64,000 nucleotides of DNA. Origin: an uncultured Spirochaetota bacterium (GTDB lineage: Bacteria > Spirochaetota > Brevinematia > Brevinematales > JAOACQ01). The stretch spans positions 1,664,001 to 1,728,000 of the forward strand of contig CAVYGN010000002.1 in NCBI GenBank assembly GCA_963768055.1, in the 5' to 3' direction. This document shows positions 2,821-64,000 of this stretch, one piece after another; the first letter of the stretch is position 1; the number at the start of each line of letters is the position of its first letter. A model generated the notes under the pieces. That model did no database searches. It was not told where the DNA came from and saw nothing but the letters and a program-made list of their open reading frames with translations. Made by a program: the position numbers and the translations under genes.

Positions 2821-2822
2821 AT

Positions 2823-10347: not shown

Positions 10348-10397
10348 GTGATTTTAGTTTTTGAAGTTTTCTTTGCATTAAAAGTTATATAAATTTA

Positions 10398-11905: not shown

Positions 11906-11906
11906 A

Positions 11907-12464: not shown

Positions 12465-12466
12465 AT

Positions 12467-13765: not shown

Positions 13766-13825
13766 ATTTGACTCCTATAATCTTATATAATTTTCATATT
13801 TAAATAAATACAGTCCTGTTTAATA

Positions 13826-14176: not shown

Positions 14177-14191
14177 TGACCTCCTGTATAT

Positions 14192-14220
14192 AATATAACA
14201 TATTGTGAATATATCGTCAA
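14192..14220 (-). promoter_or_regulatory. Promoter of the TA operon
   Basis: TTGACG-N17-TATATT on the minus strand, followed by an AGGAGG RBS. Confidence 0.6.
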
Positions 14221-31973: not shown

Positions 31974-32229
31974 ATTTCTCTAAACTCATTCACCTAAATT
32001 CATATCTGATAAAGCATTTCTAGTTATAGTAAAAGTAAACGTTTTTAAATTTCAAAAACAACACACGCCGTTATTATTGGTACAGCGCTATAATAGATTT
32101 TATTAGCGACATTCTTTCTTTATGGATTATGCCAACTTAGGAAATATTTAATCTATAATAACAATTTCCCATCATTTTCATTTTGTTTAGGCCTAAACAA
32201 ATTTAATTCGGTATAAATTCCCATCTTTA

Positions 32230-32381
32230 AAGGCAAAAAAGTACTAGAGAGCTAAAAAAAGGTACTGGAGTACTATTGACTCTCTTTGATCATATTTTAT
32301 ATAATTTATGCCATTAAAAAATTATGAACTGTCAATCTAAGGATAAATTTATAAGAAAAATGAGGTAAGACGCTTTTGAAT
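32230..32381 (+). promoter_or_regulatory. Duplicated promoter, copy 1 (export operon)
   Basis: Three A-tract/GTAC boxes then TTGACT(32276)-N18-TATAAT(32300); near-identical to 45773-45915. Confidence 0.8.
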
Positions 32382-45749: not shown

Positions 45750-45772
45750 TTAGGTAGGAATTAAAATATTTT

Positions 45773-45915
45773 AAGGCAAAAAAGTACTCAAGAGCTAAAA
45801 AAAGGTACCCGAGTACTATTGACTATCTGTGATCATATTTTATATAATTTACGCCATTAAAAAATCATTTTAATGGTGAATTTAGTAAGAAAGCTGAGGT
45901 AAGATACTTCTGAAT
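45773..45915 (+). promoter_or_regulatory. Duplicated promoter, copy 2 (giant protein gene)
   Basis: Same GTAC boxes, TTGACT(45819)-N18-TATAAT(45843) and downstream TGAGGTAAGA block as copy 1. Confidence 0.8.
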
Positions 45916-46026
45916 GTTTGAATGCAAGCTTGACAAATTATTTTATTTCTTGTACGATTTTGTTAAAAATATAACAATTTAAAATATACCTAGAAATAAT
46001 TATAATTATCCGGTCTCGAGGTATTT

Positions 46027-49000
46027 ATGAAAATTAAAGGTTTATTAAATGAAAAATGGGGAATATTACTGTCTTTATACCTTGCGATTATCTTTTCATT
46101 TATCCCCGGCATCCTTAGACCACAAGAAAAATTCAACAGTTTCGACAATAAGGAGATGCAAAGCGAGCTTATATACGGCGATAATATAAAAAACGATGCG
46201 GACTGGCAGAACTATTCAAAGGGTGTAGAGCAGAAATTAGAAGGGGATTGGGAAACTTCCGCTTTAAATGAACTTATGCAACAGCTTGGTTTGACTGAAC
46301 ATGAGGCAATGTCCAATTCCGATTTTATAACCGCTAAAACGAACTGGGAAGCCCAGGCAAGCAATGTCATCCAGCAGATGTACGGATCGTGGCTGGCGCA
46401 AAACAAATGGAATTATGCGGTAAACGGGAGCGCAATAAGACAGTTTATAGTTCAGTATGTATGGGAAGATCAGAACGATACATCGAATATAACCGCAAAC
46501 ATATTAAGTATGCAGACCAATGTGGATGCGGAATGGTCGAATTACCTTATCTGTTACCAGGCCGGCCTCAGCGATTATCTTAATTACCTCGAAACGAATA
46601 CTCAGAATATATCATCAACCGCTATGGAGAATTATTTAGATGCTATCCAGGCTACAGCCAAGGCGCAGATGGCGGCGGCTTCCGATATAGGAAGCGAATT
46701 TATCGCACTGGAAGAAGGACAGTATATAAAATATATGGCAAGTTTTCTCGCCTACCAGCAATTCATATCCAATAACTCCCTTATAACGAACGGATTGCAA
46801 TTATCGAATAATATGGTTTCGTACATTAGCAATGCTGCGGATGCGGCAAGCAATGTAAACAGTCCTCTGACAATAGCGGAAAACGTCATACAATCCATGG
46901 ACAGCAACGAAGCCGAGATAGCCGGGCTTCTGGCAATGCCGACAAATTTCACCGATTCACCGGCAGTCGGGATAAGCGAGTGGAAAAGCATGGTCGAACA
47001 GGACTACACGGCCGGCATAAGCGAATGGGACGCGGCGATCGCGAACCTCAGCAACAGCATGATCATTTGGGAAAATAACGCTGAAAACGGATATACGAAC
47101 GGGCTCACGGAATGGGAGAATTCATACTTTATGTTAATCAGCGCCGAAATGGATTTCCAGTCCAATGTCACAGCCGACCTGACCAACAGCGAAGCCGTCT
47201 GGGGCTCGAACATCAGCGCCCAGTATGACAGCCTTAACCTCATGATAGGCACAATGACAAACCTTACGGCCCGGAATATCGATAATTTCAACAGCTACGA
47301 AAGCGGCCTGATGAATGTCCTGGTAAACGGCTCTTACGCGCTTAATGAACTGAATAAGAGCCTCGATTGGATCTCAAATACATTGAGCGTCGATGAAATT
47401 TCGAATAATTACTATTCAAATTTATACGCATCGGACATGGCTAAATCGAATCTTGATGAAAGCGAGCTAAGTTCTTCGAATACTCTTCTATCGCTATTCA
47501 ATAATTGCCAGTCCATTCTCGAACCTCTCATGGTCCTGACCGGCACCAACCGTTATTTCCAGGGAGGGGAAGGAGGAGTTGAAGCTGTTCCTGCTTACAG
47601 CGCTTCAACTAATATCGACGGTTATACCCTGACTTACAGCGGCGATAGTTATAATAATTCTTATACGGTGAACGGCAACGAAATTTATTACACCGCAAAC
47701 GGCTTTTCGTTTGAAAACAGCGAACCCGTCATGATTATAAAGTCATACATCAATAGTATTCAAAGCGATCTTAATTCAATTCAAAATGCAATACAAACCA
47801 ACAAATGGTATTATCGTCACTACTCGTCTGAAATTGGTTCCCTGAACAATGTCCTGGGAGAATGCGGGACAAATCTCGGCGCCGTGATCGGCAATGCGGC
47901 CGCCGACCTGAATTCCGAATTATATTCCGGCGATCCCGGAGCGGGAGTTCTCGCAAACGCGCTATCCAACACCGCGGATATTTACCTAATGAACAGCGCG
48001 GAAATGGATTACGCGTCCCAGCAGGACCAGGTTAACTACCTTAAACAGAACCTGGGGATAGCGCAGGCGGTCATGGATTACGCCGTTTCAAACTCCGGCG
48101 GAGGCGATATACTCAGCGCATCGAATACTTACGAAGCTGCGGTTTCGAATTATGACGTATCGACGAACGAACTTGAGGCGGAACAGGCTGCCGCCGATAG
48201 CGCTGACGTTGCAATGACAAACTATATGGAAAATATAAACGCGGCCCAGACGAATATGATCGCGGACCAGAGCAATTGCGGTATTGCACAATCCAATTAT
48301 AACGCATTCGTGACCATCCAAACAAATTTGGATTACTTTACAAGCAAGGAATATTCAAACCTTATTAATTCAAATGAAAACGCTCAGAACATTTTGTCGA
48401 ATGATTCCATTGCATATTATAGCTGCCTTGCATATTATACCGGCCTTGTCAAGGATTACTACAACGCGCTGGAGCAGGAATCGTTTACGAACAGCCTGGC
48501 CATGTCGAATTATATAACGGTAAGGGAGGACCTCGGAATTCTCGAGTGGGCCCTTATGCCGGGGATGCTCGGGATAGATAATACTTCGAACGCCTATGTA
48601 TCGGTTGCGAACTACATTAATCCGGTTTCGGATTATTCCAACGCCCTGCAGCTTTACGACACTGCGGAGAACGGGCTGGCCCGGACAAGCAATCTCATAA
48701 TAGCGGAAGAAACTCTTCCGGCAAACATGCAATCCGAGGTTAACAATTTCATCGGCGACTACAGCGATTATAGTAAACTGATGAATTTTGCCCAATCATT
48801 TATGAACCAGGAGCAGACGGTATATCAGTCGCTTGAAGGTGCTAAAAGTACTTATGATCGTGATGCTACGAATTCTTTCGGACTGTCTGCTGACGATATA
48901 GCCAGCGATCCGGTATATGCCGATGTTGTTAAGAAGATGAGCGCGGGTGCCTATACGCCTGCCGATATTATTACTATGCTTAACAACGAGATAGGCGTAA

Positions 49001-52000
49001 CCGGGGCTAACAGCGATATTTCACAGGATGAGCTTAATATAACACGCACCACAATATTGGACGATTTTTATAAGTATGTTAATACTCCTGAAGAAAGCCT
49101 TTATGAACTCGCTTTCGGGATAAGGTCCTACGATTATTTTACGAATATAGCGGGCGCGAATCTTACGGCGTTCGACAACCTCGTACACACGACTTTTCTT
49201 TCCGGCCGCGTCGATAATTCCCTGCTCAACCCCGGAGCATACGTCGACGTCCAGGGATATATAGACGGGCTTACGGCCCTTCTGTCAACCCCCGGACTCG
49301 ATCCGAATATGTCGAATGTTATCAATAACCTCGCTAATGTTCTTGCTCCCGAAGGCTCCTATTTCCAGCTTAGCAGGGGGTATATTCCTGCCATAACCAA
49401 TGTAAATATAACCCCGGCGAACACAAATTGGCCTCAGGAGGCGCCTCAGCCCATCATTACACCAGCCGTGACTAATATCACGATATCCCGACTCGGCGGA
49501 TATTATGCAGACGATACCTTCTATAATGTCAACACTAACAACGGGCGTGAGAAGATATCCGATTTATTCAAAGGCTTTATCGAAACAAACAATTCTGTTA
49601 CATATTCATGGGCGACAGTGAATCCCAATAATTACTTTGATTACAACGGCTATTATGGGAACTGGTCATATTATAATTCAGTGCTGCTGGGAATCGAGAA
49701 AAATGAAGAAACGACAATTGTAATGCCCCTGATGTCAACAATGACTAATAACCTGGCCGGAGTAATGTCGGACTGGAACGATTATTCGAACAAGAACGCC
49801 GGGTTCGCGCAGTACACTGTTTCCGGCATGGGACATTTCGTCAATTCTTCAGGGGGCATAGATGTAACAGCCGGCAATAACGGTTTTCTAAAATCGTTCA
49901 AGAACTCGCTCTCCCGGGTTTCGAATTTTTCAATCGCTCAATCCTGGCTGGCAAATACCGGCGTTTTTAATGCCGAAGAGGCTTATATAGCGGATAACCT
50001 TAGCCTGGGCAATGCCGGGACAAACGACATCGGAAGGATACTTGAAGTGTTTGAAAACGCTTTTAAGTTATATATAAATTCGGAACAATCCAATATTCAG
50101 AACGATCCCGCGTTTACAACAAACAATGACATGAAGTTATTTATTACAACTATGCTCAGCGGCGCATATTCCAACGCGGTATTCAGAGCTTCGGATGAGG
50201 CTCAACCATCATTCGTAGACGCTGCCGAGAATGCCGGCAGCCTAGCCCCGGAGGCTTTCGACATAGCCTTCCAGCAGCAGGAAACCCTGCAGGTCGATAA
50301 GTGGGCGTATATATTAACAAATATGCAGGACCAGGCGAATAGTGAAGCCGAAATGTGGGTCAATATATACAGCGCCGGAACAGAGCAGTGGAACGGGGTA
50401 ATTAACCAGTACACCAATGCAATGAGCGATTGGCAAAGCTCTTATCTGCAGGCCTGGAACAACGGGAACCAGGAATGGAACGATCAGATGAACGGCCTTA
50501 CCGGGGATAAAGCGGCTTGGATGAATGAAGCGATAAATGCTGTAAGCAACGGAAGTTCCGATTATATTCTGGACCAGCTTATGCAGTCAATCGACCAGAG
50601 GACATCGCAGTTCTTAAGCGGAGGCCTTCCTGAAGACGTCGCTTCGGCGGTCAAGAACGAGGCTTTAGACCTGGAAAACGAATTGATGCCGAAAACAAGC
50701 GAAGAATACCTGTCGTTTTTCAATAACGCGGTATCGCAGTCGAGGGAGACGGATGTAAAATTCGTACTTGACGGCATAGCCGGATATACCGGAAACGATA
50801 ACGAAACCCTCGCCCAGTTCAATAACGATATGACGGCTTTCAAGAACAGCCAGCTCGCCATAGAAGCCATAAAAATGAGGGATCAATTCGTTACCACAAT
50901 ACAGCAGTATGTCGACCAGATGAATAATACATTGGCAAGCGACGACCAGAACGAGCGGAGCAGCGAATTCTACCCGATGATCTCGGCAAAGGGCTGGACG
51001 CTCGACGGAAGCGACTGGGTCAAGAGGGGCGTGATCGTACATTCCACAATGCTCGGCGGAAACCAGCTGGAGGACTTTTCATTTGCGGATTACCAGAGTT
51101 TTACAAACCGGCTCAATTTCATAAACTACGCACCAAGCAACGTAATATCGGAGATCAACGGCGAGCAGACGGAGTACAACCTGCTCTTAGCTATGGAGGA
51201 AAGCGATATACAGGGCGATATGAGCAATACCATGGACGCTTTCGATAAACATATAGGCTCGTCGTATACGTATACGTCGAAGCCGGACATATACTCCGAC
51301 GGTACATACGACAGCCAGGGCGAACTGTACAGGACCTCATGGGCCACGACATATTACGGATACCTGCAGACGGAAGGATTGTCGGAGTCCGAAAAACCCT
51401 TCTGGGACCAAAACCTGGCCCCGGGGATAGACATATCGTTCTATTCGCTGAACGAGATCGGTCTTGCAATCGCACTTAACTTTATACCGGGTATGGGAAC
51501 TGTTGCATCAGCAGCTATATTAGCGGGCATGGCCATGACGCATGATATTGTGGATGCCGCCGCAGAACTGGGGACCGTGAACCAGGTATCCAACAGCCAG
51601 CTTGGAATAGACCTCCTCAAGGACACCATAAGCGGCGTGACAACTATGGCTACGGCGGGAATAGGTTCGGCCGCCCTCGGCGTTGTTGGAAGCGCGGTAC
51701 TTTCCACCGGCGTGCAGGACCTGAGCGGCCTGGCCGAGGAAGGACTTCACGTCAATTCGAGCGGAGATATTGATTGGAGCATGACCTCCTCGCAGTGGGG
51801 AAGCTGGGGAATGTCAAGCCTCGGTGACCTCGCAGGATCAGTCGCGGGGGCGGGGCTGGGCTCGGCGTTCGGAGGATTTGCCCAGGATGCGACCGGATTC
51901 ATGGGAGACGACCTCAGCAGCGCGTTCGGAAACGGAATACAGAATTTTACCACGTCATTCTTCACCAACACCTTCTCGACCCTCGGAAGCAATCTTGGCG

Positions 52001-53814
52001 CCGGCCTCGACTGGAACAATATGACCCTGAACCCCAGCACATGGAATATGAAGGCCGGTTCCACGATCAATATGAACTGGGGAAACATACTTAACAATTC
52101 CCTGGTAGCTGGAGCCTCCGGCTTCGCTTCGGGGCTTGCGGGGTCTTTGCTCGGCGGACAGTACAACGCCGATATGGGAGGAATGGACTATAACGGACTT
52201 ATCGGGGGTGATGCTTACAATAATTTCGCAAATGTAATAGGATCGTTCGCAGGACAGGGCGCAAACTACGAACTGAACGGAAGCTTCAACATAGACCTCG
52301 GCGCGGGTATCGGCACAAGCTATGTTAATGGCAAAGGCTTCGTGCGCAATGACGGGACATCGGGAGTAAGCCTCATAAGCTGCCTGCAGGGATTTTCCGA
52401 CTTATCGAATTCATCGAACCTGCCGGCCTTGCCTGTAAATAACAATCAGGACGCAAGCACGACGCCGGAACTCCCGCAAGCCATATTGCCTAAGGATCCA
52501 TCCGACTATATTCCGGAAAGCGATATCGTCAATCCGAATGTTCCGGACAATTCATATAGCGGAGCGAATAATGCGGCCAATCCAAATCCGAATGCGTTTA
52601 CTCCTGCAACAGTAGCTTATAATGAAATAGGGCAGCAAGTTCCACTTACTGATACACAGAGTCCTGTAGTTCCCCAGACAGTAAACCCTTATGACCATAT
52701 TTCAGACGGGAATAATTCCGGTCCGATTTTACCATATCAGCAAGTAGCAGAGCAGGCGTATCTCAATCAAAGCGATGCGTACAAGACCCAGATTTCAGAC
52801 CTTCAGAATAACCTTGGCATAGTTACGAGTGCCGGTATCATCAATACAAGTTCGGCAGTGAGCGATCTGAAGAGCGATATTCACGTAACAGATAATGCAA
52901 TGCAGCAGAATTATTCGTCATATCTCGGCAATGCCGGGATTGATGTTTCAAGATTCACAAAAGATGCTAATGGAAATATAACGAGCAACATATCTAATAA
53001 TTCCAGTTTTGTCAGCCAGGTATATCAGGACCAGGTGGATCACTATAACCGTGTTATGGATGATGCGAAGGATAATGCGGTAGTGAATGGCATAAATAAC
53101 ACATATAATGCAATGCTTTCGGCAAACAATAACGCGAATATTGTACAGAATGTTGGTTTAGGAAATGCAGGAAATATTACTGATGTTATAAACTATCAAA
53201 ACGATATCAGAAGCAATAATATTTTAAATATGAACGGCAGCAATAATGGAAACATTGTCAGCGACAGCCTGCAAAACAAAGGAAATTATTTTATGGTCGG
53301 AGAACAGGGATTGGGTTTTGGAACGCCTGCAGGCAACTATGGCGATTCTTATAGCGACCGTATCAGTGTTTTCAAAATGGATGACGCCGGTAATATTGAC
53401 TTGAAAGAATTCAACCAGTCCAATCTGGAATCGACAAACGATAAATATGATAGTAAAACCAACACTTATGATCCGACTCAGCAGCAATATTCTGACACTG
53501 CCTCTGGTATATATAATCTTACTACATATCAATGGACGGGGGAAGGACATGATTCCCCAGGAATGCAATTCTGCTTCTTAATAAATGATAAAGGGCCTGT
53601 CTCTACCAGTGATGGAATGAATAACGTTGCCTATCCATGGCAAGGTCCTATTATATATGATTCGAGAGTGCATACAGGTGGAGTTTATTGGAATGGCAGT
53701 GAAGCATGTAGCACAATAAATCCTAACGATTATTATCAGTTGATGAGTATGTTTCAAAATTCAAATGGATCATATCAATATGGAAGTCAAGGCACATATT
53801 ATCTATTAAGATAA
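46027..53814 (+). CDS. Giant exported protein, putative polymorphic toxin (architecture recalls the Leptospira TIGR04388 large proteins)
   Basis: Signal peptide, long helical region with periodic Trp, Gly/Ala-rich hydrophobic segment, linker duplicated in an orphan cassette, C-terminal VH.GG....S..C.TI motif. Confidence 0.7.
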   Translation: MKIKGLLNEKWGILLSLYLAIIFSFIPGILRPQEKFNSFDNKEMQSELIYGDNIKNDADWQNYSKGVEQKLEGDWETSALNELMQQLGLTEHEAMSNSDFITAKTNWEAQASNVIQQMYGSWLAQNKWNYAVNGSAIRQFIVQYVWEDQNDTSNITANILSMQTNVDAEWSNYLICYQAGLSDYLNYLETNTQNISSTAMENYLDAIQATAKAQMAAASDIGSEFIALEEGQYIKYMASFLAYQQFISNNSLITNGLQLSNNMVSYISNAADAASNVNSPLTIAENVIQSMDSNEAEIAGLLAMPTNFTDSPAVGISEWKSMVEQDYTAGISEWDAAIANLSNSMIIWENNAENGYTNGLTEWENSYFMLISAEMDFQSNVTADLTNSEAVWGSNISAQYDSLNLMIGTMTNLTARNIDNFNSYESGLMNVLVNGSYALNELNKSLDWISNTLSVDEISNNYYSNLYASDMAKSNLDESELSSSNTLLSLFNNCQSILEPLMVLTGTNRYFQGGEGGVEAVPAYSASTNIDGYTLTYSGDSYNNSYTVNGNEIYYTANGFSFENSEPVMIIKSYINSIQSDLNSIQNAIQTNKWYYRHYSSEIGSLNNVLGECGTNLGAVIGNAAADLNSELYSGDPGAGVLANALSNTADIYLMNSAEMDYASQQDQVNYLKQNLGIAQAVMDYAVSNSGGGDILSASNTYEAAVSNYDVSTNELEAEQAAADSADVAMTNYMENINAAQTNMIADQSNCGIAQSNYNAFVTIQTNLDYFTSKEYSNLINSNENAQNILSNDSIAYYSCLAYYTGLVKDYYNALEQESFTNSLAMSNYITVREDLGILEWALMPGMLGIDNTSNAYVSVANYINPVSDYSNALQLYDTAENGLARTSNLIIAEETLPANMQSEVNNFIGDYSDYSKLMNFAQSFMNQEQTVYQSLEGAKSTYDRDATNSFGLSADDIASDPVYADVVKKMSAGAYTPADIITMLNNEIGVTGANSDISQDELNITRTTILDDFYKYVNTPEESLYELAFGIRSYDYFTNIAGANLTAFDNLVHTTFLSGRVDNSLLNPGAYVDVQGYIDGLTALLSTPGLDPNMSNVINNLANVLAPEGSYFQLSRGYIPAITNVNITPANTNWPQEAPQPIITPAVTNITISRLGGYYADDTFYNVNTNNGREKISDLFKGFIETNNSVTYSWATVNPNNYFDYNGYYGNWSYYNSVLLGIEKNEETTIVMPLMSTMTNNLAGVMSDWNDYSNKNAGFAQYTVSGMGHFVNSSGGIDVTAGNNGFLKSFKNSLSRVSNFSIAQSWLANTGVFNAEEAYIADNLSLGNAGTNDIGRILEVFENAFKLYINSEQSNIQNDPAFTTNNDMKLFITTMLSGAYSNAVFRASDEAQPSFVDAAENAGSLAPEAFDIAFQQQETLQVDKWAYILTNMQDQANSEAEMWVNIYSAGTEQWNGVINQYTNAMSDWQSSYLQAWNNGNQEWNDQMNGLTGDKAAWMNEAINAVSNGSSDYILDQLMQSIDQRTSQFLSGGLPEDVASAVKNEALDLENELMPKTSEEYLSFFNNAVSQSRETDVKFVLDGIAGYTGNDNETLAQFNNDMTAFKNSQLAIEAIKMRDQFVTTIQQYVDQMNNTLASDDQNERSSEFYPMISAKGWTLDGSDWVKRGVIVHSTMLGGNQLEDFSFADYQSFTNRLNFINYAPSNVISEINGEQTEYNLLLAMEESDIQGDMSNTMDAFDKHIGSSYTYTSKPDIYSDGTYDSQGELYRTSWATTYYGYLQTEGLSESEKPFWDQNLAPGIDISFYSLNEIGLAIALNFIPGMGTVASAAILAGMAMTHDIVDAAAELGTVNQVSNSQLGIDLLKDTISGVTTMATAGIGSAALGVVGSAVLSTGVQDLSGLAEEGLHVNSSGDIDWSMTSSQWGSWGMSSLGDLAGSVAGAGLGSAFGGFAQDATGFMGDDLSSAFGNGIQNFTTSFFTNTFSTLGSNLGAGLDWNNMTLNPSTWNMKAGSTINMNWGNILNNSLVAGASGFASGLAGSLLGGQYNADMGGMDYNGLIGGDAYNNFANVIGSFAGQGANYELNGSFNIDLGAGIGTSYVNGKGFVRNDGTSGVSLISCLQGFSDLSNSSNLPALPVNNNQDASTTPELPQAILPKDPSDYIPESDIVNPNVPDNSYSGANNAANPNPNAFTPATVAYNEIGQQVPLTDTQSPVVPQTVNPYDHISDGNNSGPILPYQQVAEQAYLNQSDAYKTQISDLQNNLGIVTSAGIINTSSAVSDLKSDIHVTDNAMQQNYSSYLGNAGIDVSRFTKDANGNITSNISNNSSFVSQVYQDQVDHYNRVMDDAKDNAVVNGINNTYNAMLSANNNANIVQNVGLGNAGNITDVINYQNDIRSNNILNMNGSNNGNIVSDSLQNKGNYFMVGEQGLGFGTPAGNYGDSYSDRISVFKMDDAGNIDLKEFNQSNLESTNDKYDSKTNTYDPTQQQYSDTASGIYNLTTYQWTGEGHDSPGMQFCFLINDKGPVSTSDGMNNVAYPWQGPIIYDSRVHTGGVYWNGSEACSTINPNDYYQLMSMFQNSNGSYQYGSQGTYYLLR
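52273..52518 (+). repeat. 246-bp homology arm, copy 1
   Basis: 244/246 identical to 55570-55815 by manual alignment. Confidence 0.95.
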
Positions 53815-54896
53815 TGGATTGTAATATGAAAAATATGGTAATTATAATTATTTTCACAATAATAAGTTTTAAACTTTATGCTGCTTCAATAGAAATTGCT
53901 GGAGACGATATTTTTCACCATGATATTTTTACAAAAACTATTATTGATCCTGATAATGGTGATCCCATTGAATATAATATATTTAATTTCTTCGATAATA
54001 ATCAGAAAACTGCAGTAGTTATAAATGCTAAATTTAGGCAAAATGATGATATATTTAAATATCCATTTTTTAGAATAAGCTTAAAAAAACAATATAATAT
54101 TGATAAATTAGTGTTCTATAATGGTTTCCAAATAAATGATGATTTATATAATAAAAATAGCAGGGTAAAAGAGATTCAAATTACATTTTTTCTTGAAAAT
54201 AAAATTTTTGTAAATGAAGGGGAAATTTATAATGATGTAATCATTGATGAAAAAGGGAGAAAGCAAAAAATTGTAATTGAATGGACAAATATTATAACGA
54301 CGAACTGTATTTTGCTTGATACAAAAGGAAAACAAATAATTGAATTTCCTGAAGTTAACGCAAATAATTTAAAAATCGATGTATTAACCTACTATTCAGG
54401 CACTCAGTATGATGATATCTGTATAAGCAAGCTTGAGTTCTGGTACAGGGGCGAGAAGTACCAAGTGACTAATCTTAAGGAAGCAAAGAAAGAATATGTT
54501 AAATTGTATATTGCACATGTTCTTAATTCATTGGAACCGGGTGTATTTTTGCATGATATGGAAGAAAATAATTATAACAGACTTATCAAGATAGCAGGGT
54601 GGAAATATGAACAATCTGAAAGCAGGCAGGTTGGAATATTTTTTGAAAAATCTGGAGAAATAAAAATCCATCGATTTTTGCTATCATCCGTCAAAGATCG
54701 TGATTTATTCCCAACTAAAATCATCGGAAAATGGAAATTCGATAATGAAGGAAGACTATTCATTATGATAGGTAATGGGCAATTTAAATTGTCGCAAGGG
54801 AAAAGTATTTTTACAAGTTCATCTACGGAAAAAGGGCCGTATTTTGTTGGAACTGATCTTGAATTTGAAGGTATTATGGAACCATCGAGACCTTAG
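53814..54896 (+). CDS. Exported partner/putative immunity protein 1 (NADase-type glycan-binding/discoidin-like N-domain)
   Basis: TAATG coupling to the giant gene; signal peptide; YNGFQ....Y.KNSRVK...Y.GTQYDDICISKLEF. Confidence 0.65.
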   Translation: MDCNMKNMVIIIIFTIISFKLYAASIEIAGDDIFHHDIFTKTIIDPDNGDPIEYNIFNFFDNNQKTAVVINAKFRQNDDIFKYPFFRISLKKQYNIDKLVFYNGFQINDDLYNKNSRVKEIQITFFLENKIFVNEGEIYNDVIIDEKGRKQKIVIEWTNIITTNCILLDTKGKQIIEFPEVNANNLKIDVLTYYSGTQYDDICISKLEFWYRGEKYQVTNLKEAKKEYVKLYIAHVLNSLEPGVFLHDMEENNYNRLIKIAGWKYEQSESRQVGIFFEKSGEIKIHRFLLSSVKDRDLFPTKIIGKWKFDNEGRLFIMIGNGQFKLSQGKSIFTSSSTEKGPYFVGTDLEFEGIMEPSRP

Positions 54897-54926
54897 ATAC
54901 ATATAAATCAACAAAGAGGCTAACTA

Positions 54927-55229
54927 ATGGACAACAAAAACAAGCCATCCGGCGTTCCCGTTAAATTCCAGGACACCGCGAATAAAGTAGCATACTCCAA
55001 CTTCGCTCTGATCAACAACTCGTCGGAGGAGTTCCTGCTGGACTTCGGCAATATCACCCCCGGCAAGGAGGGAGTGGAGGTATTCAGCAGGATAGCGCTC
55101 TCCCCCCGCAACGCGAAGCTGTTCCTGAGCGGGCTTATGGAGCGTGTGAAGAAGTTTGAAGAACAGTTTGGCCCGATCAAGCCGCCAGAGGCGGTGGAGG
55201 TAGAGGCGATGAACGGGAGAGATAAGTGA
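54927..55229 (+). CDS. DUF3467-family protein, copy 1
   Basis: YSNFALINNSSEEFLLDFG...SRIALSPRNAK...KFEEQFGPI. Confidence 0.85.
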   Translation: MDNKNKPSGVPVKFQDTANKVAYSNFALINNSSEEFLLDFGNITPGKEGVEVFSRIALSPRNAKLFLSGLMERVKKFEEQFGPIKPPEAVEVEAMNGRDK

Positions 55230-55550
55230 CGATTAACGATTGTCGAATGACGATTGAAACCAGGTAATAGTAAAGATTATGATTATAGAACAAAGGTTAG
55301 CGAACAACCCCCGCCTGCGAGGGAAGCGCCCGGGGGTTGATCCTTGTAAAGCAGGCCGTCCGCGAAAAACGGCGGTAAGCCCTGCCCCTTATCGATATCT
55401 GTTTTTTTATAAAAGAATTCGTTCGCTTAAATTAAAAACCTTAAGGGGCGGGACAGCCGTTTTGAGCGGTTGCAGTTCATGCTTCCCGAGCCCAGCGGGG
55501 GCGGTTTCTTTCGGTTCGCTTTCTTTGCCGGCCAAAGAAAGCGAACAGGG
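55230..55550. repeat. Structured palindromic element, copy 1
   Basis: Highly similar to 59904-60248; nested stem 55308-55501 plus a perfect 14-bp hairpin at 55514-55546. Confidence 0.85.
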
Positions 55551-55569
55551 GGCCAGGCATATCTCCGCC

Positions 55570-57084
55570 CTGAACGGAAGCTTCAACATAGACCTCGGCG
55601 CGGGTATCGGCACAAGCTATGTTAATGGCAAAGGCTTCGTGCGCAATGACGGGACATCGGGAGTAAGCCTCAGAAGCTGCCTGCAGGGATTTTCCGATTT
55701 ATCGAATTCATCGAACCTGCCGGCCTTGCCTGTAAATAACAATCAGGACGCAAGCACGACGCCGGAACTCCCGCAAGCCATATTGCCTAAGGATCCATCC
55801 GACTATATTCCGGAAGACGATGTTGTTAATACGAATCCTTCAAATAATACTTGGGCTGACCCTGGGCTTGCCGCTTCAAACGTAGTGAATAATGTGACCA
55901 ATCCGGCTCCGAATGTATTTAATCCTGCTAATGTGGCTTATAATGAAATAGGACAGCAAGTTCCACTTACTGATATGCAAAATTCTTCGTTATCGCAGAA
56001 AGTAGACCCGAATGATCATATTTCTATTGGCAGTGCCGCTCTTCAGGATTTGCTTTACAAAAATGGGGAATACAGCAATCAGCTCAAAACACTTCAGAAT
56101 GATATGAGTACTGTTCAGGGTGTTGGGTTAAATAATGCTAGTTCTATTGTTGGAGACCTCAAAAATGATTTTAAATCAACAGACAGCTTAATGCAACAGA
56201 ATTATACATCTTATCTGAGTGATAACAATATTAATGTATCAACATTCAAAGTCAATTCAGATGGCAGCGTGTCCAGCAATATATCGAATAATTCTTATGT
56301 CAACAATCAACTTTATCAGGAACAAAAAGATCATTACACTAATATCGCAAACGAAATGAATAATAGTTATCAAACTAATGAAATAAATAACACGATTAAT
56401 ACGCTTCAAAGTGTCGGGTTAAACAACTCGGCGGCACCGAGTATCGATCCGGCGATCTCAGATATGAAGGACCAGATAACTATAATAAATAACAGCTATA
56501 ATAAAAATATTCTTAGTAATGGTCTGAATAATAATAACAGATATGATTTTATAGGGGAAGAAGGACGCGGAAACTATCAGCAAACAGGTCCTGATTATTA
56601 CGGCGACAGAATTACTGTACTTCAGAAAGATGCGAGCGGTAATATCAATTTCGATGAGTTCAACAGATCCAACCTTGAATCGACTAATGATCCCTCATTA
56701 GACAGAAAAGACTATGATCCAGCAAAAGGCGGATTTCAATCAACTGCAGCTGGTATATATTCGCTTACAGCAAGCGGCGATACATCTAATCTTAACTCAC
56801 AAGATATACCATTAATATTTAGCGTAAATGACGGGCAAAACATACCGACAGAGGGAAATCAAAATAACGCATATAACTATAATACGCCTTACATGAACCA
56901 GATTCTTGTTCATGAAGGCGGCGACAACTATAACTGGAGCGCGGGATGCTCTACGATATATATTGATGATTACCCAGCATTAGCGAACTTATTTGGGAAT
57001 TATAATTCGCAGACAAAGAAATTTATACCTTATGCAGGAAGTTATTCGGCAATAGGAAGCGGTACATATTATCTTTACAGGTAA
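55570..57084 (+). CDS. Orphan alternative C-terminal cassette of the giant protein
   Basis: Begins with the 246-bp arm in frame, then diverges while staying homologous (VHEGG...SAGCSTI, GTYYL.R); the ORF part 55279-55569 is read-through of the repeat element. Confidence 0.85.
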   Translation: MNGSFNIDLGAGIGTSYVNGKGFVRNDGTSGVSLRSCLQGFSDLSNSSNLPALPVNNNQDASTTPELPQAILPKDPSDYIPEDDVVNTNPSNNTWADPGLAASNVVNNVTNPAPNVFNPANVAYNEIGQQVPLTDMQNSSLSQKVDPNDHISIGSAALQDLLYKNGEYSNQLKTLQNDMSTVQGVGLNNASSIVGDLKNDFKSTDSLMQQNYTSYLSDNNINVSTFKVNSDGSVSSNISNNSYVNNQLYQEQKDHYTNIANEMNNSYQTNEINNTINTLQSVGLNNSAAPSIDPAISDMKDQITIINNSYNKNILSNGLNNNNRYDFIGEEGRGNYQQTGPDYYGDRITVLQKDASGNINFDEFNRSNLESTNDPSLDRKDYDPAKGGFQSTAAGIYSLTASGDTSNLNSQDIPLIFSVNDGQNIPTEGNQNNAYNYNTPYMNQILVHEGGDNYNWSAGCSTIYIDDYPALANLFGNYNSQTKKFIPYAGSYSAIGSGTYYLYR

Positions 57085-57093
57085 AAGAAGGTT

Positions 57094-58053
57094 ATGAAAG
57101 TTAAAATTATGATAATTCTCAGTCTACTAATAATCTATTCATGTATAAATGCATCAAAAATTGAATTAGATGGAATAGAGAGGGGGAAACTTGGACTTAT
57201 TTATACAATATTTGGTGAAGATAATAGCCCCCTAAAATATAATGAATTTAATTTATTGGATAAGAATTTGAAAACAGCTTCTGCTATCAGCAAAAGTAAT
57301 TGTTCACCTGAAGATTCAATACCATGGTTCAATATATTTTTTAAAAAAGAATTCCCTGTTGATAAAATTGTAATCTATAATGGATTTCAATTGAATATGA
57401 CAGTTTATCAATTAAATGACAGACCCAATGAAGTAAAAATCGATTCACAAAATGAGAGTGATGATTCCACAAATTATTCATTTGTTACAAACATTCAACT
57501 ATTAGATATTACTAATAGTCAGGAACTTTTATTAAATAAAGAAATTAGAATAAAAAATTTTGGTATAGGTGTCCTTTCCACCTATCCAGGTACAAAGTAC
57601 GACGACATCTGTTTAAGCAAGCTTGAATTCTGGTACAAGGGCGAGAAGTATAATGTTGCAAATCTTGAAGAAGCCAAGAAAGAATATATTAAGACATACA
57701 TCCAGAGATGCCTTCATTGGATATTATCATATTATTATATAAACTCTATCAATCCTGAAGGGATGGATAAATTAGATAAACTTGCGGGAATAAAGAAAAC
57801 GGTAGAATTAGGATATGACACATGTATAAATTTTGAAAAGAGCGGAGATATCAAAGTGATACCGGCACTGGAAGATAATAAGGTAAGGGTACATGTCGGC
57901 AGCTGGAAATTCGACGATGAAGGAAGGCTATGGATTAAATTAGACAATGGCGACTGGAAGGTATCAAAAAGTTCCGAATCGAATGTTAATTTTGGCAAAA
58001 GACATTTTATCGGGACCGATCTCGATTGTGTTATTGCAGGTTGGGGTGGGTGA
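57094..58053 (+). CDS. Exported partner/putative immunity protein 2
   Basis: Paralog of 53814..54896 (YNGFQ, YDDICLSKLEFWYKGEKY, WKFDDEGRL, GTDL). Confidence 0.65.
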   Translation: MKVKIMIILSLLIIYSCINASKIELDGIERGKLGLIYTIFGEDNSPLKYNEFNLLDKNLKTASAISKSNCSPEDSIPWFNIFFKKEFPVDKIVIYNGFQLNMTVYQLNDRPNEVKIDSQNESDDSTNYSFVTNIQLLDITNSQELLLNKEIRIKNFGIGVLSTYPGTKYDDICLSKLEFWYKGEKYNVANLEEAKKEYIKTYIQRCLHWILSYYYINSINPEGMDKLDKLAGIKKTVELGYDTCINFEKSGDIKVIPALEDNKVRVHVGSWKFDDEGRLWIKLDNGDWKVSKSSESNVNFGKRHFIGTDLDCVIAGWGG

Positions 58054-58115
58054 TATTGATGATATTTAGAAAATTACTTTTATTAAAAAATAATAATCGA
58101 GCAAGAGGCTAACTA

Positions 58116-58478
58116 ATGGACAACAAAAACAACACCAAACCATCGGGCGTTCCTGTCAAATTCCAGGACACCGCCAATAAAGTAGCATACTCCAACTTTG
58201 CGCTGATCAACAATTCGTCCGAAGAGTTCCTGCTGGACTTCGGAACGATCACGCCCGGAAGGGAAGGGGTTGAGGTGTTTGGCAGGATAGCGCTTTCTCC
58301 CCGCAACGCGAAGCTGTTCCTCCAGGGTCTGGCTGAAAGAGTAAAAAAGTTTGAAGAACAATATGGCCCGATCAAGCCGCCGGAGGCGGTGGAGGTGCTT
58401 GTCCTGAATTCCCGCCAGAATTCAGGGCTTGCGCCTGTGGTGGAGGCGATTAACAAGGGAGAGCATCATCTAAAATAA
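58116..58478 (+). CDS. DUF3467-family protein, copy 2 (15-aa in-frame insertion)
   Basis: Near-identical to copy 1, with the same upstream AAGAGGCTAACTA. Confidence 0.85.
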   Translation: MDNKNNTKPSGVPVKFQDTANKVAYSNFALINNSSEEFLLDFGTITPGREGVEVFGRIALSPRNAKLFLQGLAERVKKFEEQYGPIKPPEAVEVLVLNSRQNSGLAPVVEAINKGEHHLK

Positions 58479-58523
58479 ATTTAAAATAAGTCCAAAGAAA
58501 ATATAATTTATGGAGGTTTTTGC

Positions 58524-59543
58524 ATGAAAATAAGATTAACCAATCTATTGCTTGCTTTAATATTGTTCGGTGGAGCTATTTTAACAGTTTTATCTGTTTT
58601 ATCCGGAGCAGTTTTAACTGGTTGTTCGCTTTTCAATTCATCAAGTTCTTCATCTGCGACATCGACTGCCTCATCGTCTGGTCCTACTGTATATACTGCC
58701 GGGCAGGACAGTAGCGGTAACGCATGTTACTGGACAGGAACTACCGAAACACAGTTTACATCTTCTGGAAACGGAGCAAAAGCTTACTCTATCTTTGTAT
58801 ATAATGGAACTGTATATACTGCCGGGCAGGACGGCAGTGGTTACGCATGCTGTTGGGTAGGGTTTACCGAAACACAGTTGACATTTGCTGGACATGGAGC
58901 AATTATACACTCTATCTTTGTATATAATGGGAATGTTTATGCTGCCGGGCAGGACAGTTCCGGTCATGCCTGTTACTGGGGGCCAGGATGGTCACAGAAT
59001 ACTCTCAATTCAGGCAGCAGTGTTGCCGATGCAATTTTTGTTTCTGATGGAACAGTATATACCGCCGGATTTGTTACCGGTGCTAATGTTTGCTACTGGA
59101 CGGGAACTTCCGAAACACCTTTAACAGCCGGTAGCGGTGCTGCTACGTCGATCTTTGTTTATAATGGAACAATTTATACTTCAGGTAATGATATTAGCCT
59201 AAATGAGTGCTATTGGACAGGAACAACAGAAACCCCTTTGCCCGGTGGAAGCTATAGTGGCGGGAGTTATTATCCATGGGCAGGGGCGATCTTTGTATAT
59301 AATGGAATTGTTTATATTGCTGGGCGGGACAGCAGCAGGAACGCTTGTTACTGGACAGGAACTTCAGAAACACAGTTGACAACGGCTGGCGGCAGCGCTT
59401 TTGCAGACTCAATCTATGTATACAATGGAACTGTATATACTGCCGGGCAGGACAGCAGTGGTAACGAATGTTACTGGACAGGAACTAATGAGACTAAGCT
59501 ATTAAGCGGAGCATCTGTAAATTCAATCTTTGTAGTACCCTAA
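58524..59543 (+). CDS. Beta-propeller-like repeat lipoprotein
   Basis: LTGC lipobox, poly-Ser linker, seven repeats of SIFVYNGTVYTAGQDSSGNACYWTGT.ET.L. Confidence 0.8.
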   Translation: MKIRLTNLLLALILFGGAILTVLSVLSGAVLTGCSLFNSSSSSSATSTASSSGPTVYTAGQDSSGNACYWTGTTETQFTSSGNGAKAYSIFVYNGTVYTAGQDGSGYACCWVGFTETQLTFAGHGAIIHSIFVYNGNVYAAGQDSSGHACYWGPGWSQNTLNSGSSVADAIFVSDGTVYTAGFVTGANVCYWTGTSETPLTAGSGAATSIFVYNGTIYTSGNDISLNECYWTGTTETPLPGGSYSGGSYYPWAGAIFVYNGIVYIAGRDSSRNACYWTGTSETQLTTAGGSAFADSIYVYNGTVYTAGQDSSGNECYWTGTNETKLLSGASVNSIFVVP

Positions 59544-59792
59544 ATATCTATAAATAATTACATAGTCAATTTTAATACGCTATTTTATCTGGGAAATATG
59601 GGATAAGAGCCTTTTTTAATATCTACGCAACTGAGGAATTCGGTATCTAAAACTATTACGCGAGGAATTTTTCAATGAAAAAGGGGGGGGCAATCATGGC
59701 ATTTTTAGAATACAAAGGTAAGATGATTAATCTTGATGATGACTAAGAAAGTGGTGATGCGGAACGGGCCTGTCCCTGATGTCGGCTCAGGG

Positions 59793-59903
59793 ATGAGGAA
59801 GTATGAGGAGCAATTTGCCCCGATCAAGCCGTCCGAGGCGCTTGTCCCTGAGCATACTGCTCAGGGGGTGGAAGTTGAGGCGATAAACGGGAGAGATAAG
59901 TGA
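59793..59903 (+). pseudogene. DUF3467 3' remnant, copy 3
   Basis: MRKYEEQFAPIKPSEA[LVPEHTAQG]VEVEAINGRDK* matches the C-terminus of copy 1. Confidence 0.8.
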
Positions 59904-60248
59904 CGATTGCCGATTATCGAATGACGATTGAAACCAGGTAATAGTAAAGATTATGATTATAGAACAAAGGTTAGCGAATAACCCCCGCCTGCGAGGGAAG
60001 CGCCCAAAGTTTTATCCTTGTGTTGAAAGCCGCCCGCGAAAAACGGCGGTAAGCCCCGCCCCTTATCGATTTTTGTTTTTTTATAAAAGAATTTGTTCTT
60101 GTAAATTAAAAACCTTAAGGGGCGGGACAGCCGTTTTGAGCGGTTGCTACCCATGCTTGCCGAGCAAAGCGGGGGCTTGTGCCTGCCGTCAGGCAGGTGC
60201 GGTTTCTTTCGGTTCGCTTTCTTTGCCGGACAAAGAAAGCGAACAGGG
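59904..60248. repeat. Structured palindromic element, copy 2
   Basis: Same stems as copy 1; 14-bp hairpin at 60212-60244; extra 24-nt insertion at 60176-60199. Confidence 0.85.
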
Positions 60249-60381
60249 AAACGGCATCGAATGCGAATCTGTAGTAAAAGTCCAGCTAAGGGATTGTACC
60301 GGGCTGAAGAGCGAGGGTAATGATTGTATTTTTTAAGTAAAATAAGTTTGAAGAAAACATAATATTTATGGAGGTTTTTAT

Positions 60382-60963
60382 ATGAAGAAAAGATTAACCA
60401 AGGTTTGCGCCATTTTATCTGCCGGAGTTTTTATGGTGATGATATCAATAGTTTCCGTCAGCATTTTCTCAGTAGCTTTATCCGGATGTTCGAATTCGCC
60501 AGGGTCATCGAGTTCTTCTAGTTCATCGGCTCCCGCTCCGACTCAATTGACGATCGTTAATTCTTCATCTGAAAGGTTAGGCTTTATTGAATGGCCTCTA
60601 GGAAGCGCCCAAGGTACATTTTTTGGATATGATGCATGGGTTACTGGTACTATTTCTTATTCTGGTTTATTTGTCGGAGACAGCGCTACTAAAGATGTTT
60701 CGCCCGGTTCCGGTTACGTTTATTTTTATCCCGATAACGGAATCTTTACAGAATATCATACAGTTGAATTAGTTACAGTGTCGAATAATCAGTCTGTTAC
60801 ATTTACTTTCACAGGCTCAACATTGGTCGTAGTCGGCCTAAAAAAATCCGGTCAAACCAATATTCAATATATACCGGTTATACCTTCAATATCTGTAATT
60901 CCTTCCATATCATATGATGAAGTAACAAACAGTTATTTTAAATTTATGGAAGGGAACAGATGA
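60382..60963 (+). CDS. Lipoprotein
   Basis: GGAGG RBS, LSGC lipobox, poly-Ser linker, beta-rich domain. Confidence 0.75.
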   Translation: MKKRLTKVCAILSAGVFMVMISIVSVSIFSVALSGCSNSPGSSSSSSSSAPAPTQLTIVNSSSERLGFIEWPLGSAQGTFFGYDAWVTGTISYSGLFVGDSATKDVSPGSGYVYFYPDNGIFTEYHTVELVTVSNNQSVTFTFTGSTLVVVGLKKSGQTNIQYIPVIPSISVIPSISYDEVTNSYFKFMEGNR

Positions 60964-61005
60964 TGAAATTTTACTGCAAGTGTATTCAATGAATAAAGAG
61001 GAAAA

Positions 61006-61227
61006 ATGATAACGGACTGGGATGAGTTCAAGGTTTGGTGCGGATGCGGCAGCAGGCTCAAGGTCCTCATATTTAATACGGCTGATAATAATGACATTAC
61101 TGAATATAACTGCCCTGAATGCGGGAAAGAGTTTACGGCGATATCCGCTATAAAGCCGAAGGTGAAACTGATTAACAGAAGGAATAACGCTGGATCGGAA
61201 TTTGAAGCTTCGACTCCGGATTTGTAA
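61006..61227 (+). CDS. Small zinc-ribbon protein
   Basis: CGCG...CPECG; GAGG RBS. Confidence 0.55.
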   Translation: MITDWDEFKVWCGCGSRLKVLIFNTADNNDITEYNCPECGKEFTAISAIKPKVKLINRRNNAGSEFEASTPDL

Positions 61228-61289
61228 TTTCACCTTCATATACTACTTTTTTAAAATATTTCAGGGGCTAAATAATCGTAAAGCAATAT

Positions 61290-63299: not shown

Positions 63300-63610
63300 A
63301 GAAAAATTTTAAACAGGGATTCGATTTAAAAATCCACCTTGCATAATTCCAGACTCTGTAGTATAATAAATGAGTGTGTACAAATTGTATACGATTTGTG
63401 TACAGTGATTTTCCTTCAATATGAAATATGTGTTTTGTAATTGGTTGTTAGTGAAGAAATTAGAAAAAAGGGAAAGTTCTATCGATTCCGAGGGGATCAA
63501 CATACCTATCTATTTCAGTGTTTTTCTTCCAGCCAGAGCCGAAGATGCCGAAAGGTACCGGGCAAGGAATTAGCCGCAGATACATATGGATGAGAACGGA
63601 TTGAAAAATT

Positions 63611-64000
63611 TTAAGGATTTTTGTCAATGGCCTTGCCTAAGGCCTTATCTATAGCCTCGATAAGTTTTTCCTTCCGGACGGGTTTTAAAAGGATATCGGT
63701 GCAGCCGATATTACGGGATAAATCGATATTTTCAGAGTCTATATAACCTGTCAGCATGATAACCGGCAGATCCGGATTGTTTTTCCTGATTTCCCTTAAA
63801 ATCTCGATCCCGTTGTCATCCATCAATTTTATATCGCAGATGACGGTGTCTATATTCTCGGAGGCTATTATTTTAAAAGCTTCATGACGGTTCGAAGCTT
63901 CGAACGCGCATTTACCGCTTGAGGTAATCTGGGAAACAATAACCTTTCTTATTTGAGGTTCGTCGTCGATTATCAGGATTTTTTTTAACCTTTCAACATC
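63611..64000 (-). CDS. Response regulator receiver domain (5' part off window)
   Basis: ILIIDDE...ICDIKL...PVIMLTG...LLKP in one frame open to the window end. Confidence 0.9.
   Translation of the reverse strand, partial: DVERLKKILIIDDEPQIRKVIVSQITSSGKCAFEASNRHEAFKIIASENIDTVICDIKLMDDNGIEILREIRKNNPDLPVIMLTGYIDSENIDLSRNIGCTDILLKPVRKEKLIEAIDKALGKAIDKNP

Follow-up and report, generated by a model that had tools for sequence, protein, structure and literature searches.

A large structured element behind DUF3467 genes in a Brevinematales cassette locus, tentatively read as an RNA 3′ trailer

Introduction

The attC sites of integrons are 57–141 bp long, carry AAC...GTT core sites as well as extrahelical bases and need the integrase IntI. 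REP/BIME, ERIC and Correia/NEMIS sequences form dispersed multi-copy families with defined ends, and palindromic intergenic repeats are transcribed at gene 3′ ends, where they can stabilise the mRNA or be cut by RNase III. Major-groove RNA triple helices of the pyrimidine motif are represented by the H-type pseudoknot of telomerase RNA, by the SAM-II and preQ1-II riboswitches and by the ENE/MALAT1-type 3′-end structures, and the polymorphic toxin loci (CdiA-CT/CdiI, Rhs tips) contain orphan C-terminal modules. For the vls system of the Lyme Borrelia, one report describes inverted repeats between vlsE and the silent cassettes that are retained although their sequence is not conserved, that can be nested and that raise recombination in a mini-system (PMC11499132). 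The present analysis concerns a structured element that occurs in two copies, associated with genes of the DUF3467 family, in a stretch of 64,000 nucleotides (the window) from an uncultured Spirochaetota bacterium of the Brevinematales (assembly GCA_963768055.1, contig CAVYGN010000002.1, positions 1,664,001 to 1,728,000).

The element folds, it is conserved behind DUF3467 genes, its terminal hairpin has undergone compensatory evolution and its layout resembles that of a terminator. From these features we infer an element acting as RNA, which would terminate transcription or stabilise the transcript. Our leading reading, to which we give somewhat less than an even chance, is that of a cis-acting RNA 3′ trailer on the sense strand, which would serve as terminator, insulator and 3′-end protection and would have been duplicated together with each cassette unit. 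An earlier sequence-only reading had offered a single-stranded DNA recombination site, a miniature inverted-repeat transposable element (MITE) or a structured RNA; the last fits best of the three, the attC-like site did not hold up and a MITE is rather unlikely, with no copy away from DUF3467 in the 141 kb examined. No prior description of the element was found in the literature on DUF3467 nor, as judged by title, among the Brevinematales matches listed.

Two copies of the element in the window

The element and its parts lie as follows.

55230..55550, plus strand: element copy 1, with a leader hairpin (55237-55256), a nested domain closed by 55308-55314 / 55495-55501 and then the 3′ module
55505..55512, plus strand: pyrimidine run of copy 1, TTTCTTTC, which is a mirror repeat of the pyrimidine arm in the hairpin; a 1-nt linker (G 55513) comes next
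55514..55546, plus strand: terminal perfect 14-bp hairpin of copy 1, arms 55514-55527 / 55533-55546, with a pyrimidine 5′ arm, a purine 3′ arm and a 5-nt loop
59904..60248, plus strand: element copy 2, with closing helix 59982-59988 / 60169-60175, pyrimidine run 60203-60210 and hairpin 60212-60244
~60175..60198, plus strand: 24-nt insertion of copy 2 only, which together with its flanks (60177-60202) forms an 11-bp hairpin directly 5′ of the pyrimidine run
60212..60244, plus strand: terminal perfect 14-bp hairpin of copy 2, arms 60212-60225 / 60231-60244, preceded by TTTCTTTC at 60203-60210

The two copies represent a repeat unit of ~320 bases with ~90% identity. The segments 55189-55488 and 59863-60162 are 90% identical over 300 nt and the last 56 nt (55495-55550 and 60193-60248) are 95% identical; the repeat starts (55189) about 40 nt inside the 3′ coding end of DUF3467 and ends at 55550 and 60248, respectively. 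The extent proposed earlier for both copies was thus confirmed, and all pairings listed at that time were found, i.e., CCCCCGC (55308-55314) with GCGGGGG (55495-55501), GGGAAGC with GCTTCCC, AAAACGGC with GCCGTTTT, and CCTGCCCCTTA with TAAGGGGCGGG, the latter with a G-U pair in copy 1 and a G-C pair in copy 2 as claimed. In copy 2, one pair of the GGGAAGC/GCTTCCC helix is broken (alignment columns 94/257). The perfect 14-bp hairpin with the preceding run TTTCTTTC is present in both copies, and the hairpin pattern occurs twice in the window compared to 0.00 expected occurrences.

Both copies fold better than shuffled sequences, with z-scores of -2.9 for copy 1 and -5.25 for copy 2 and none of 100 shuffles being as stable. 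The differences between the copies had been said to fall mostly in loops, and it was found that 12 of 210 paired compared to 22 of 117 unpaired columns vary (Fisher p = 5e-4), the structure being predicted from the same two sequences, which favours this result. Six altered pairs still pair, all of them via G-U on the plus strand.

An open frame runs through the element (55279-57084; in copy 2 59953-60336), and it might be taken for the N-terminal extension of a protein or for a small basic protein, as it is open across both copies, in phase with the orphan module described below and preserved by the 24-nt insertion. A coding element is extremely improbable and close to refuted: the open reading frame (ORF) of 127 aa through copy 2 retrieves only itself (18 candidates, collection of 5.8 billion proteins), the copies differ by 6 synonymous vs. 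~14 non-synonymous changes by hand count, a comparison in six frames revealed no peptide similarity across lineages (best E = 0.002 over 17-23 residues in a tiny database, from hairpin-derived scraps) and no Shine-Dalgarno sequence precedes the ATG. Sequestration of a Shine-Dalgarno sequence by the hairpin was rejected since the hairpin has neither a start codon nor an ORF behind it in any of the lineages; the idea that DUF3467 is read through into the orphan module was also rejected, as the frames differ and a second stop follows 7 codons later.

Recurrence in relatives and compensatory evolution of the 3′ module

The relatives of the window's DUF3467 proteins mark the host as a Brevinematales spirochaete. 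A profile search of genome contigs with a DUF3467 alignment of 28 of 37 homologues plus the two window proteins, in which fragments and the window's own entries were left out, resulted in six loci (L001 to L006). Together with the 64-kb window these loci (77 kb) give 141 kb of sequence that was examined for copies. The 3′ module follows 5 of the 12 DUF3467 3′ ends examined, i.e., 2 of 3 in the window, 1 of 1 in L001, 1 of 3 in L002 and 1 of 1 in L003, and it is absent from L004 (0 of 2), L005 (0 of 1) and L006 (0 of 1, with a flank of 127 nt only). The element of L003 and that in the spacer after the third DUF3467 gene of L002 (L002c), the DUF3467 proteins of which are 71% and 70% identical to that of the window, show the same layout as in the window, with a long domain, a G+C-rich closing helix, the pyrimidine run and a perfect hairpin of 14-17 bp. 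The elements are 250-430 nt long, and the fold z-scores of these two relatives of the window element are -5.26 and -4.36.

L001 (CAWDRY010000029.1), which is filed under a Gemmataceae metagenome-assembled genome, carries copy 1 at 99.5% identity. Its positions 1-1263 at the very end of the contig are 97% identical to the window; the match stops at 1263 and the G+C content goes from ~0.5 to ~0.6 in the remainder (1264-10307). As judged from these features the contig is probably a chimeric assembly or was mis-binned, and it therefore provides no independent evidence, including on the different cassette downstream. The four independent full elements are thus window copy 1, window copy 2, L002c and L003.

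The terminal hairpin was aligned for these four elements; L001, which is identical to copy 1 there, was left out. Across the three lineages the alignment comprises 15 pairs with 58 of 58 cells paired, and 8 of the 15 pairs are changed on both sides. None of 500 shuffles matched the real result and registers slid along the arms were paired to 45-55%. This compensation is the firmest evidence for what appears to be selection on a folded single strand. A covariance model of the 3′ module with 57 positions gave no match at E < 1e-13 in the 141 kb other than those behind DUF3467. A partial match to this model (E 0.0015), which looks like an ordinary terminator, is a hairpin in the rplL-rpoB spacer of L004 (Brevinematales bacterium NS, 18523-18552), with 11 bp, a pure pyrimidine 5′ arm, a purine 3′ arm and a U-rich tail; its arm style is the same as that of the element's terminal hairpin.

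Downstream of the terminal hairpin of L003 (2740-2930), a motif of the purine arm type (ACAAAAGAAAGG-like, often with TTG before it) occurs three more times as direct repeats. They might represent an array of protein-binding sites or else TTGACA boxes like those of promoters.

Comparison with described RNA families, for which an Rfam search had been proposed, did not provide a name for the element. Rfam 15 gave 0 matches in the window at the gathering threshold and, in a permissive search of 54800-60600, only sub-threshold miRNA-type hairpins; the six loci gave 2 tRNAs only and nothing significant in L003 2200-3000.

A possible triple helix in the 3′ module

In all three lineages the module consists of a pyrimidine run, a linker of 1-2 nt and a hairpin of 14-17 bp with a lower stem of 5-6 bp, and the run mirrors the pyrimidine arm of the hairpin in every lineage. 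The three strands are as follows.

Window: TTTCTTTC / CTTTCTTT / AAAGAAAG
L003: TTTTCTTT / CTTTCTTTT / AAAAGAAAG
L002c: TCTTTCTTC / CTTCTTTCT / AGAAAGAAG

All three strands co-vary between the lineages, and the lengths of linker and lower stem are constant. Because of the mirror symmetry, the run can lie parallel to the purine arm with U.A and C.G matches of the Hoogsteen type. In this parallel register 33 of 36 cells fit (8, 8, 8 and 9 of 9), compared to 11-22 of 36 when the strands are slid. The sequence-only reading had noticed that the run TTTCTTT offers an alternative pairing; this stands insofar as 29 of 36 cells fit when the best fixed register of antiparallel Watson-Crick pairs is used, and the parallel register is slightly better. 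The contiguous matches are 8, 8, 8 and 9 in the parallel and 7, 7, 7-8 and 8 in the antiparallel orientation.

As described in a review, a pyrimidine-motif triplex is formed by a U/C third strand parallel to the purine strand with at least 4 consecutive U.A-U or C.G-C triples, and stability is ascribed to the canonical U.A-U and to isolated C.G-C triples (PMC7583470). In the element 8-9 consecutive positions per lineage could be arranged in this way, and the C's of the third strand, which are never adjacent in any lineage, correspond to what the review lists as tolerated (PMC7583470). The 3′ module might then be an intramolecular pyrimidine-motif RNA triple helix that caps the 3′ end of the operon transcript, as a prokaryotic counterpart of the ENE/MALAT1-type structures. 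The U/C run would be placed in the hairpin's major groove and run parallel to the purine arm, with 8-9 U.A-U and isolated C+.G-C triples, and the linker would cross the lower stem like loop 1 of an H-type pseudoknot. Judging from the geometry of pseudoknots, 1-2 nt could span the deep groove of 5-6 bp, and the order of strands (Hoogsteen, linker, Watson, loop, purine) would correspond to loop 1 over stem 2.

The described triple helices differ from the element in that it has no Rfam match to an ENE or riboswitch, no A-rich 3′ tail as clamp and no context of a ligand pocket; moreover, a triplex is here deduced from symmetry alone, and antiparallel Watson-Crick pairing fits almost as well. Since the margin over antiparallel pairing is one position per lineage and the tracts are quasi-periodic, the triplex is rated low, as a doubtful though not far-fetched proposal. 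As a third reading of the same run, it possibly serves as the U-tract of a terminator. Pairing of the pyrimidine run with the A-rich apical loop in a pseudoknot was rejected, as the complementarity comprises only 5-6 nt and is, by eye, not conserved.

Layout of the locus and a proposed trailer at the operon end

The element is located on the sense strand within a run of genes, from 33889 to 63299, that are all on the plus strand. The order is promoter, giant gene, accessory gene, DUF3467, element and then a promoterless orphan unit.

45819..45848, plus strand: best sigma-70-like promoter of 44001-64000 (TTGACT-18-TATAAT), the likely start of the giant-protein operon
46027..53814, plus strand: giant gene for an N/S/G-rich protein of 2595 aa, the expressed gene, its last ~515 codons forming the variable C-terminal region
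52266..52703, plus strand: homology arm in the expressed gene; the orphan module opens with a further copy of it (D3 96%, D6 78%)
53814..54896, plus strand: accessory protein of 360 aa with an NADase-type glycan-binding (discoid) domain
54927..55229, plus strand: DUF3467 gene no. 1 (E 2.6e-16), last gene of the unit
55563..57084, plus strand: orphan C-terminal module, which lacks both a start codon and a promoter of its own
57094..58053, plus strand: accessory paralogue of 319 aa, 37% identical to the 360-aa accessory protein
58116..58478, plus strand: DUF3467 gene no. 2 (120 aa), no element behind it, a lipoprotein-like gene following from 58524
59733..59903, plus strand: short ORF, the 3′ part of which is a remnant (last ~35 codons) of a third DUF3467 gene

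According to the reading as an RNA 3′ trailer, the element would belong to an operon that begins with the promoter at ~45830 and comprises the giant gene, the accessory gene and DUF3467. The sense strand would fold into a long rod-like nested domain with a G+C closing helix, followed at once by the U/C run and the very stable hairpin. This folded trailer would stop or attenuate transcription and block decay in the 3′-to-5′ direction, and the expressed unit would be insulated from what lies downstream, i.e., from the promoterless orphan module behind copy 1 and from unrelated genes behind copy 2. The duplicated unit would comprise the homology arm, the variable C-terminus, the accessory gene, DUF3467 and the trailer, and the element would be found at cassette junctions because each tandemly duplicated unit ends with it.

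It was found that 53500-61500 contains 19 terminator-like sites compared to 5.8 +/- 2.0 expected, many of them within the elements, and that the top site of 44001-64000 consists of the inserted hairpin of copy 2 and the pyrimidine run. A terminator-like layout is formed in copy 2 by the insert and TTTCTTTC with 11 pairs, 6 of them G-C, and weakly in copy 1 with 6 pairs. The element was earlier held not to be a plain terminator, as no U-tract follows; this is correct for the terminal hairpin and does not apply to the pyrimidine run, which itself is directly 3′ of the closing G+C helix and, in copy 2, directly 3′ of the inserted 11-bp hairpin. Intrinsic terminators and 3′ stabiliser stem-loops share with the element the position at the operon end on the sense strand, a G+C-rich helix followed by a U-rich run and a very stable terminal hairpin, and the rplL-rpoB spacer of the relative mentioned above has a hairpin of a similar type with pyrimidine and purine arm. 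The element differs from intrinsic terminators by its 250-430 nt with a multi-helix rod and by a U-run that is broken by C and located between two structures. Regarding the strand, the whole element is more stable on the plus than on the minus strand in copy 1 (-117.9 vs. -107.9), in copy 2 (-133.2 vs. -128.4) and also in L001, and the same holds for the trimmed element of L003 (-152.4 vs. -135.3).

Several observations weigh against the reading as an RNA 3′ trailer. No T-run follows the terminal 14-bp hairpin in the window copies and the tails in L003 and L002c are only weakly U-rich, and a structure of 250-430 nt greatly exceeds the requirements of a terminator. Comparison of the two window copies shows 0 of 105 pairs with a change on both sides and, next to the pairs retained via G-U, six altered pairs that are broken; the fold of the minus-strand alignment, used as control, gave a similar ratio (3 kept, 3 broken). 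For the trimmed L002c element the minus strand is the better one (-101.1 vs. -96.0). The element is lacking behind one complete DUF3467 gene of the window, behind both in L004 and behind one in L002, and is therefore dispensable. Furthermore, a covariance model of the 199-nt window core found the window copies, L003 with E = 0.11 and nothing in L002. As this model fails in the other lineages, homology of the core across lineages is not shown; as judged from these searches the nested core is conserved as architecture only, and this shared architecture could result from independent palindromic insertions. The number of independent lineages behind the comparison is three.

Palindromic repeats and an independent small RNA as alternatives

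The divergence of the core leads to the view that selfish or neutral palindromic repeats of the REP/BIME, ERIC, Correia or MITE type accumulated at a permissive spot at the operon 3′ end and that only the small terminal hairpin is functional. In line with this, the core sequences are wholly different between the lineages at the same position, the spacer after the first DUF3467 gene of L002 has perfect inverted termini of 23 bp and 14 bp around short inserts and contains one copy of an 88-nt repeat that occurs twice in L002, and copy 2 gained the 24-nt hairpin insertion. The mosaic clusters of differing palindromes in this L002 spacer also resemble palindromic repeats and MITEs. The window repeat, in contrast, starts inside the duplicated DUF3467 gene and was therefore copied together with the gene rather than inserted. 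The copies are linked to DUF3467 only, with no further copy in the 64-kb window and the 77 kb of loci, and terminal inverted repeats or target duplications are missing at the unit ends (55189, 55550). Moreover, a blastn search of copy 1 against plasmids and phages resulted in no match, no relatives of the ORF that crosses the element were found in the 5.8 billion proteins, and the substitutions avoid paired positions. We regard such repeats as a rather unlikely explanation.

The element could also be transcribed independently, as a small RNA (sRNA) of ~260 nt that extends from a site just past the DUF3467 stop to the terminal hairpin and acts in trans or on the DUF3467 and cassette genes. A promoter-like sequence TTGAAA-18-TATGAT (10 of 12 positions) is present at 55254-55283 and 59928-59957 within the longest stretch without differences between the copies, and just downstream of it there is a motif TTATAGAAC(A/T)AAGG, which is shared with the first L002 spacer. 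A U-rich single strand with a stable 3′ hairpin is a common design of sRNA 3′ ends. Promoter-like sites are, however, no commoner than in shuffled sequence (34 vs. 26.4 +/- 6.4), the spacer of the site is 18 nt, neither the site nor the motif occurs in L003 or L002c, and no target complementarity was identified. An independent sRNA is accordingly considered quite improbable.

The element and the cassette array

The orphan arm (55563-55836) corresponds to 52266-52539 of the giant gene with 96% identity and a sharp boundary. The orphan module is 49% identical to the expressed C-terminus overall, with the first ~85 residues being nearly identical. As had been pointed out, the homology arm begins shortly after copy 1, i.e., 13-19 nt past the end of the element. 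The statement that each copy follows a DUF3467 3′ end applies to copy 1, whereas copy 2 follows only the remnant of the last ~35 codons (59733-59903), and a third, complete DUF3467 gene (58116-58478) has no element behind it. The location at cassette junctions is likewise correct for copy 1, and only one of the four independent full elements has an orphan arm directly after it: copy 2 and L002c close their arrays, copy 2 preceding an unrelated lipoprotein-like gene, and L003 contains nothing cassette-like in the 6 kb downstream (locus 8.8 kb). With three of the four (copy 2, L002c, L003) lacking an orphan arm in the sequence examined, the proposed role in building the array was not borne out.

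This layout of an expressed unit and a promoterless orphan unit would be comparable to loci of polymorphic toxins or variable surface proteins. Polymorphic toxin loci share with it a large protein with a variable C-terminus, a cognate downstream gene and promoterless orphans that start with the homology arm. They differ from it, as here no toxin or immunity family was identified for the units of giant protein and orphan module and as the units end with a conserved third gene (DUF3467) and a structured trailer.

The main rival of the RNA 3′ trailer is a role at the level of DNA similar to that in vls, in which the palindrome would extrude as hairpin or cruciform or stall replication next to the homology arm and thereby stimulate recombination or gene conversion between the orphan and the expressed gene. 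The host is a spirochaete as well, and vls likewise has an expressed gene beside promoterless silent cassettes with a near-identical 5′ arm and nested inverted repeats at the junction (PMC11499132); this position would fit copy 1 and the first L002 spacer. Copy 1 ends directly before the 96% identical arm. The sequence after the first DUF3467 gene of L002 (5448-5990) is filled with different and stronger nested palindromes (z = -9.8) without the terminal module, namely two nested palindromes with perfect closing helices of 23 bp and 14 bp, and leads to an orphan arm of 98% identity that begins 5 nt after the palindromes. As reported for the vls junction repeats, presence rather than sequence of the palindromes is conserved (PMC11499132), and the central ~110 nt of the window core are nearly symmetric on either strand.

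These points are opposed by the full elements that have no orphan arm behind them and, in part, no cassette at all, and by the fact that the element follows a separate gene, DUF3467. In vls the arrangement is head-to-head and the repeat partly mirrors the gene end (PMC11499132), whereas the units are in tandem here. The window structure is asymmetric, one arm being longer by ~37 nt, and contains G-U pairs, and thus suits RNA better than a cruciform. In addition, recombination between arms in direct repeat requires no palindrome, and no recombinase or nuclease gene is located nearby. A vls-like function of the element is hence judged unlikely.

Similarly, an integron-like single-stranded DNA recombination site was rejected on the basis of size, motif order, the perfect hairpin and the absent integrase. 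The element resembles attC as a folded imperfect palindrome at the 3′ end of a gene cassette, but is 320-345 nt long, its terminal hairpin is perfect without bulges or extrahelical bases and has GTT at the 5′ end and AAC at the 3′ end (CCTACC/GGTAGG in L002c), and there is no tyrosine recombinase among the 43 window ORFs (Pfam). These Pfam scans revealed no recombinase in the 64-kb window, and the only transposases are of the IS1595 and IS4 DDE types at 5732-6598 and 10418-11446.

With regard to the L002 array, the 88-nt repeat mentioned above is located at 5895-5982 and 13833-13920, the second occurrence following the last element of the array.

DUF3467 and further features of the window

The DUF3467 family itself offered few clues. 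A profile search against the PDB gave 0 matches at E <= 10, and the AlphaFold model has a mean predicted local distance difference test score (pLDDT) of 68.9. A Foldseek search against the PDB gave 0 matches at E <= 0.001, and a ribosomal or single-stranded DNA-binding Sub1-like fold was rejected, as the best Foldseek matches are at E > 1 and not usable. In a protein atlas the best score was 0.80, with unnamed clusters only. An exhaustive profile search resulted in 2060 cluster representatives; among the best 150, nearly every protein is of the stand-alone type with 90-160 aa, and no fusion was informative. One protein, P0043 (1044 aa), is matched 16 times by the C-terminal helix region of the DUF3467 profile and represents an unusual repeat form of a stand-alone family of ~100 aa.

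The 2595-aa protein matches no Pfam or NCBIfam family, and the variable C-terminal ~200 aa (window 53200-53811 and 56500-57081) match no family either. The orphan C-terminus has only a sub-threshold match to YkuD (L,D-transpeptidase; E 0.089, 13.8 bits), so that a peptidoglycan-acting domain is possible there. A block of 134 nt with 87% identity is present at 32192-32325 and 45735-45868, upstream of a TPR/RND-efflux operon and of the giant-protein gene, and holds the near-consensus promoter TTGACT-18-TATAAT with AGTACT-type palindromes ahead of it; because this promoter-bearing block is repeated before both operons, it suggests a shared operator and co-regulation of the two.

The lipoprotein-like gene 58524-59543 has three internal repeats of ~189 nt within 58668-59477 that are 73-74% identical, and 58498-58543 at its 5′ end share 85% identity with 60356-60401, where the next lipoprotein-like gene starts. 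Far upstream of the element, 3077-17544 form a defence or mobile island with an Eco57I-like N6-methylase (3077-5701), the IS1595- and IS4-type transposases, a Gp49/HTH toxin-antitoxin-like pair (13364-14176) and a TOTE-system AEP primase-helicase (15064-17544).

Conclusion

If the reading as an RNA 3′ trailer is true, the element would be an undescribed and unusually large structured trailer in a barely studied order of spirochaetes, which ends the units of a variable giant protein and keeps the orphan modules silent. In bacteria, major-groove triple helices are to our knowledge so far known mainly inside riboswitch pseudoknots, and the 3′ module, being small and showing clear covariation, offers a route to the question of whether bacteria protect or terminate transcripts by such helices. 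If instead the DNA-level reading is true, junction palindromes that aid cassette switching would extend from the vls system of Borrelia to a distant spirochaete lineage with a tandem layout. Finally, the pair of DUF3467 and element provides a way into a family of 2060 cluster representatives that is without known function.

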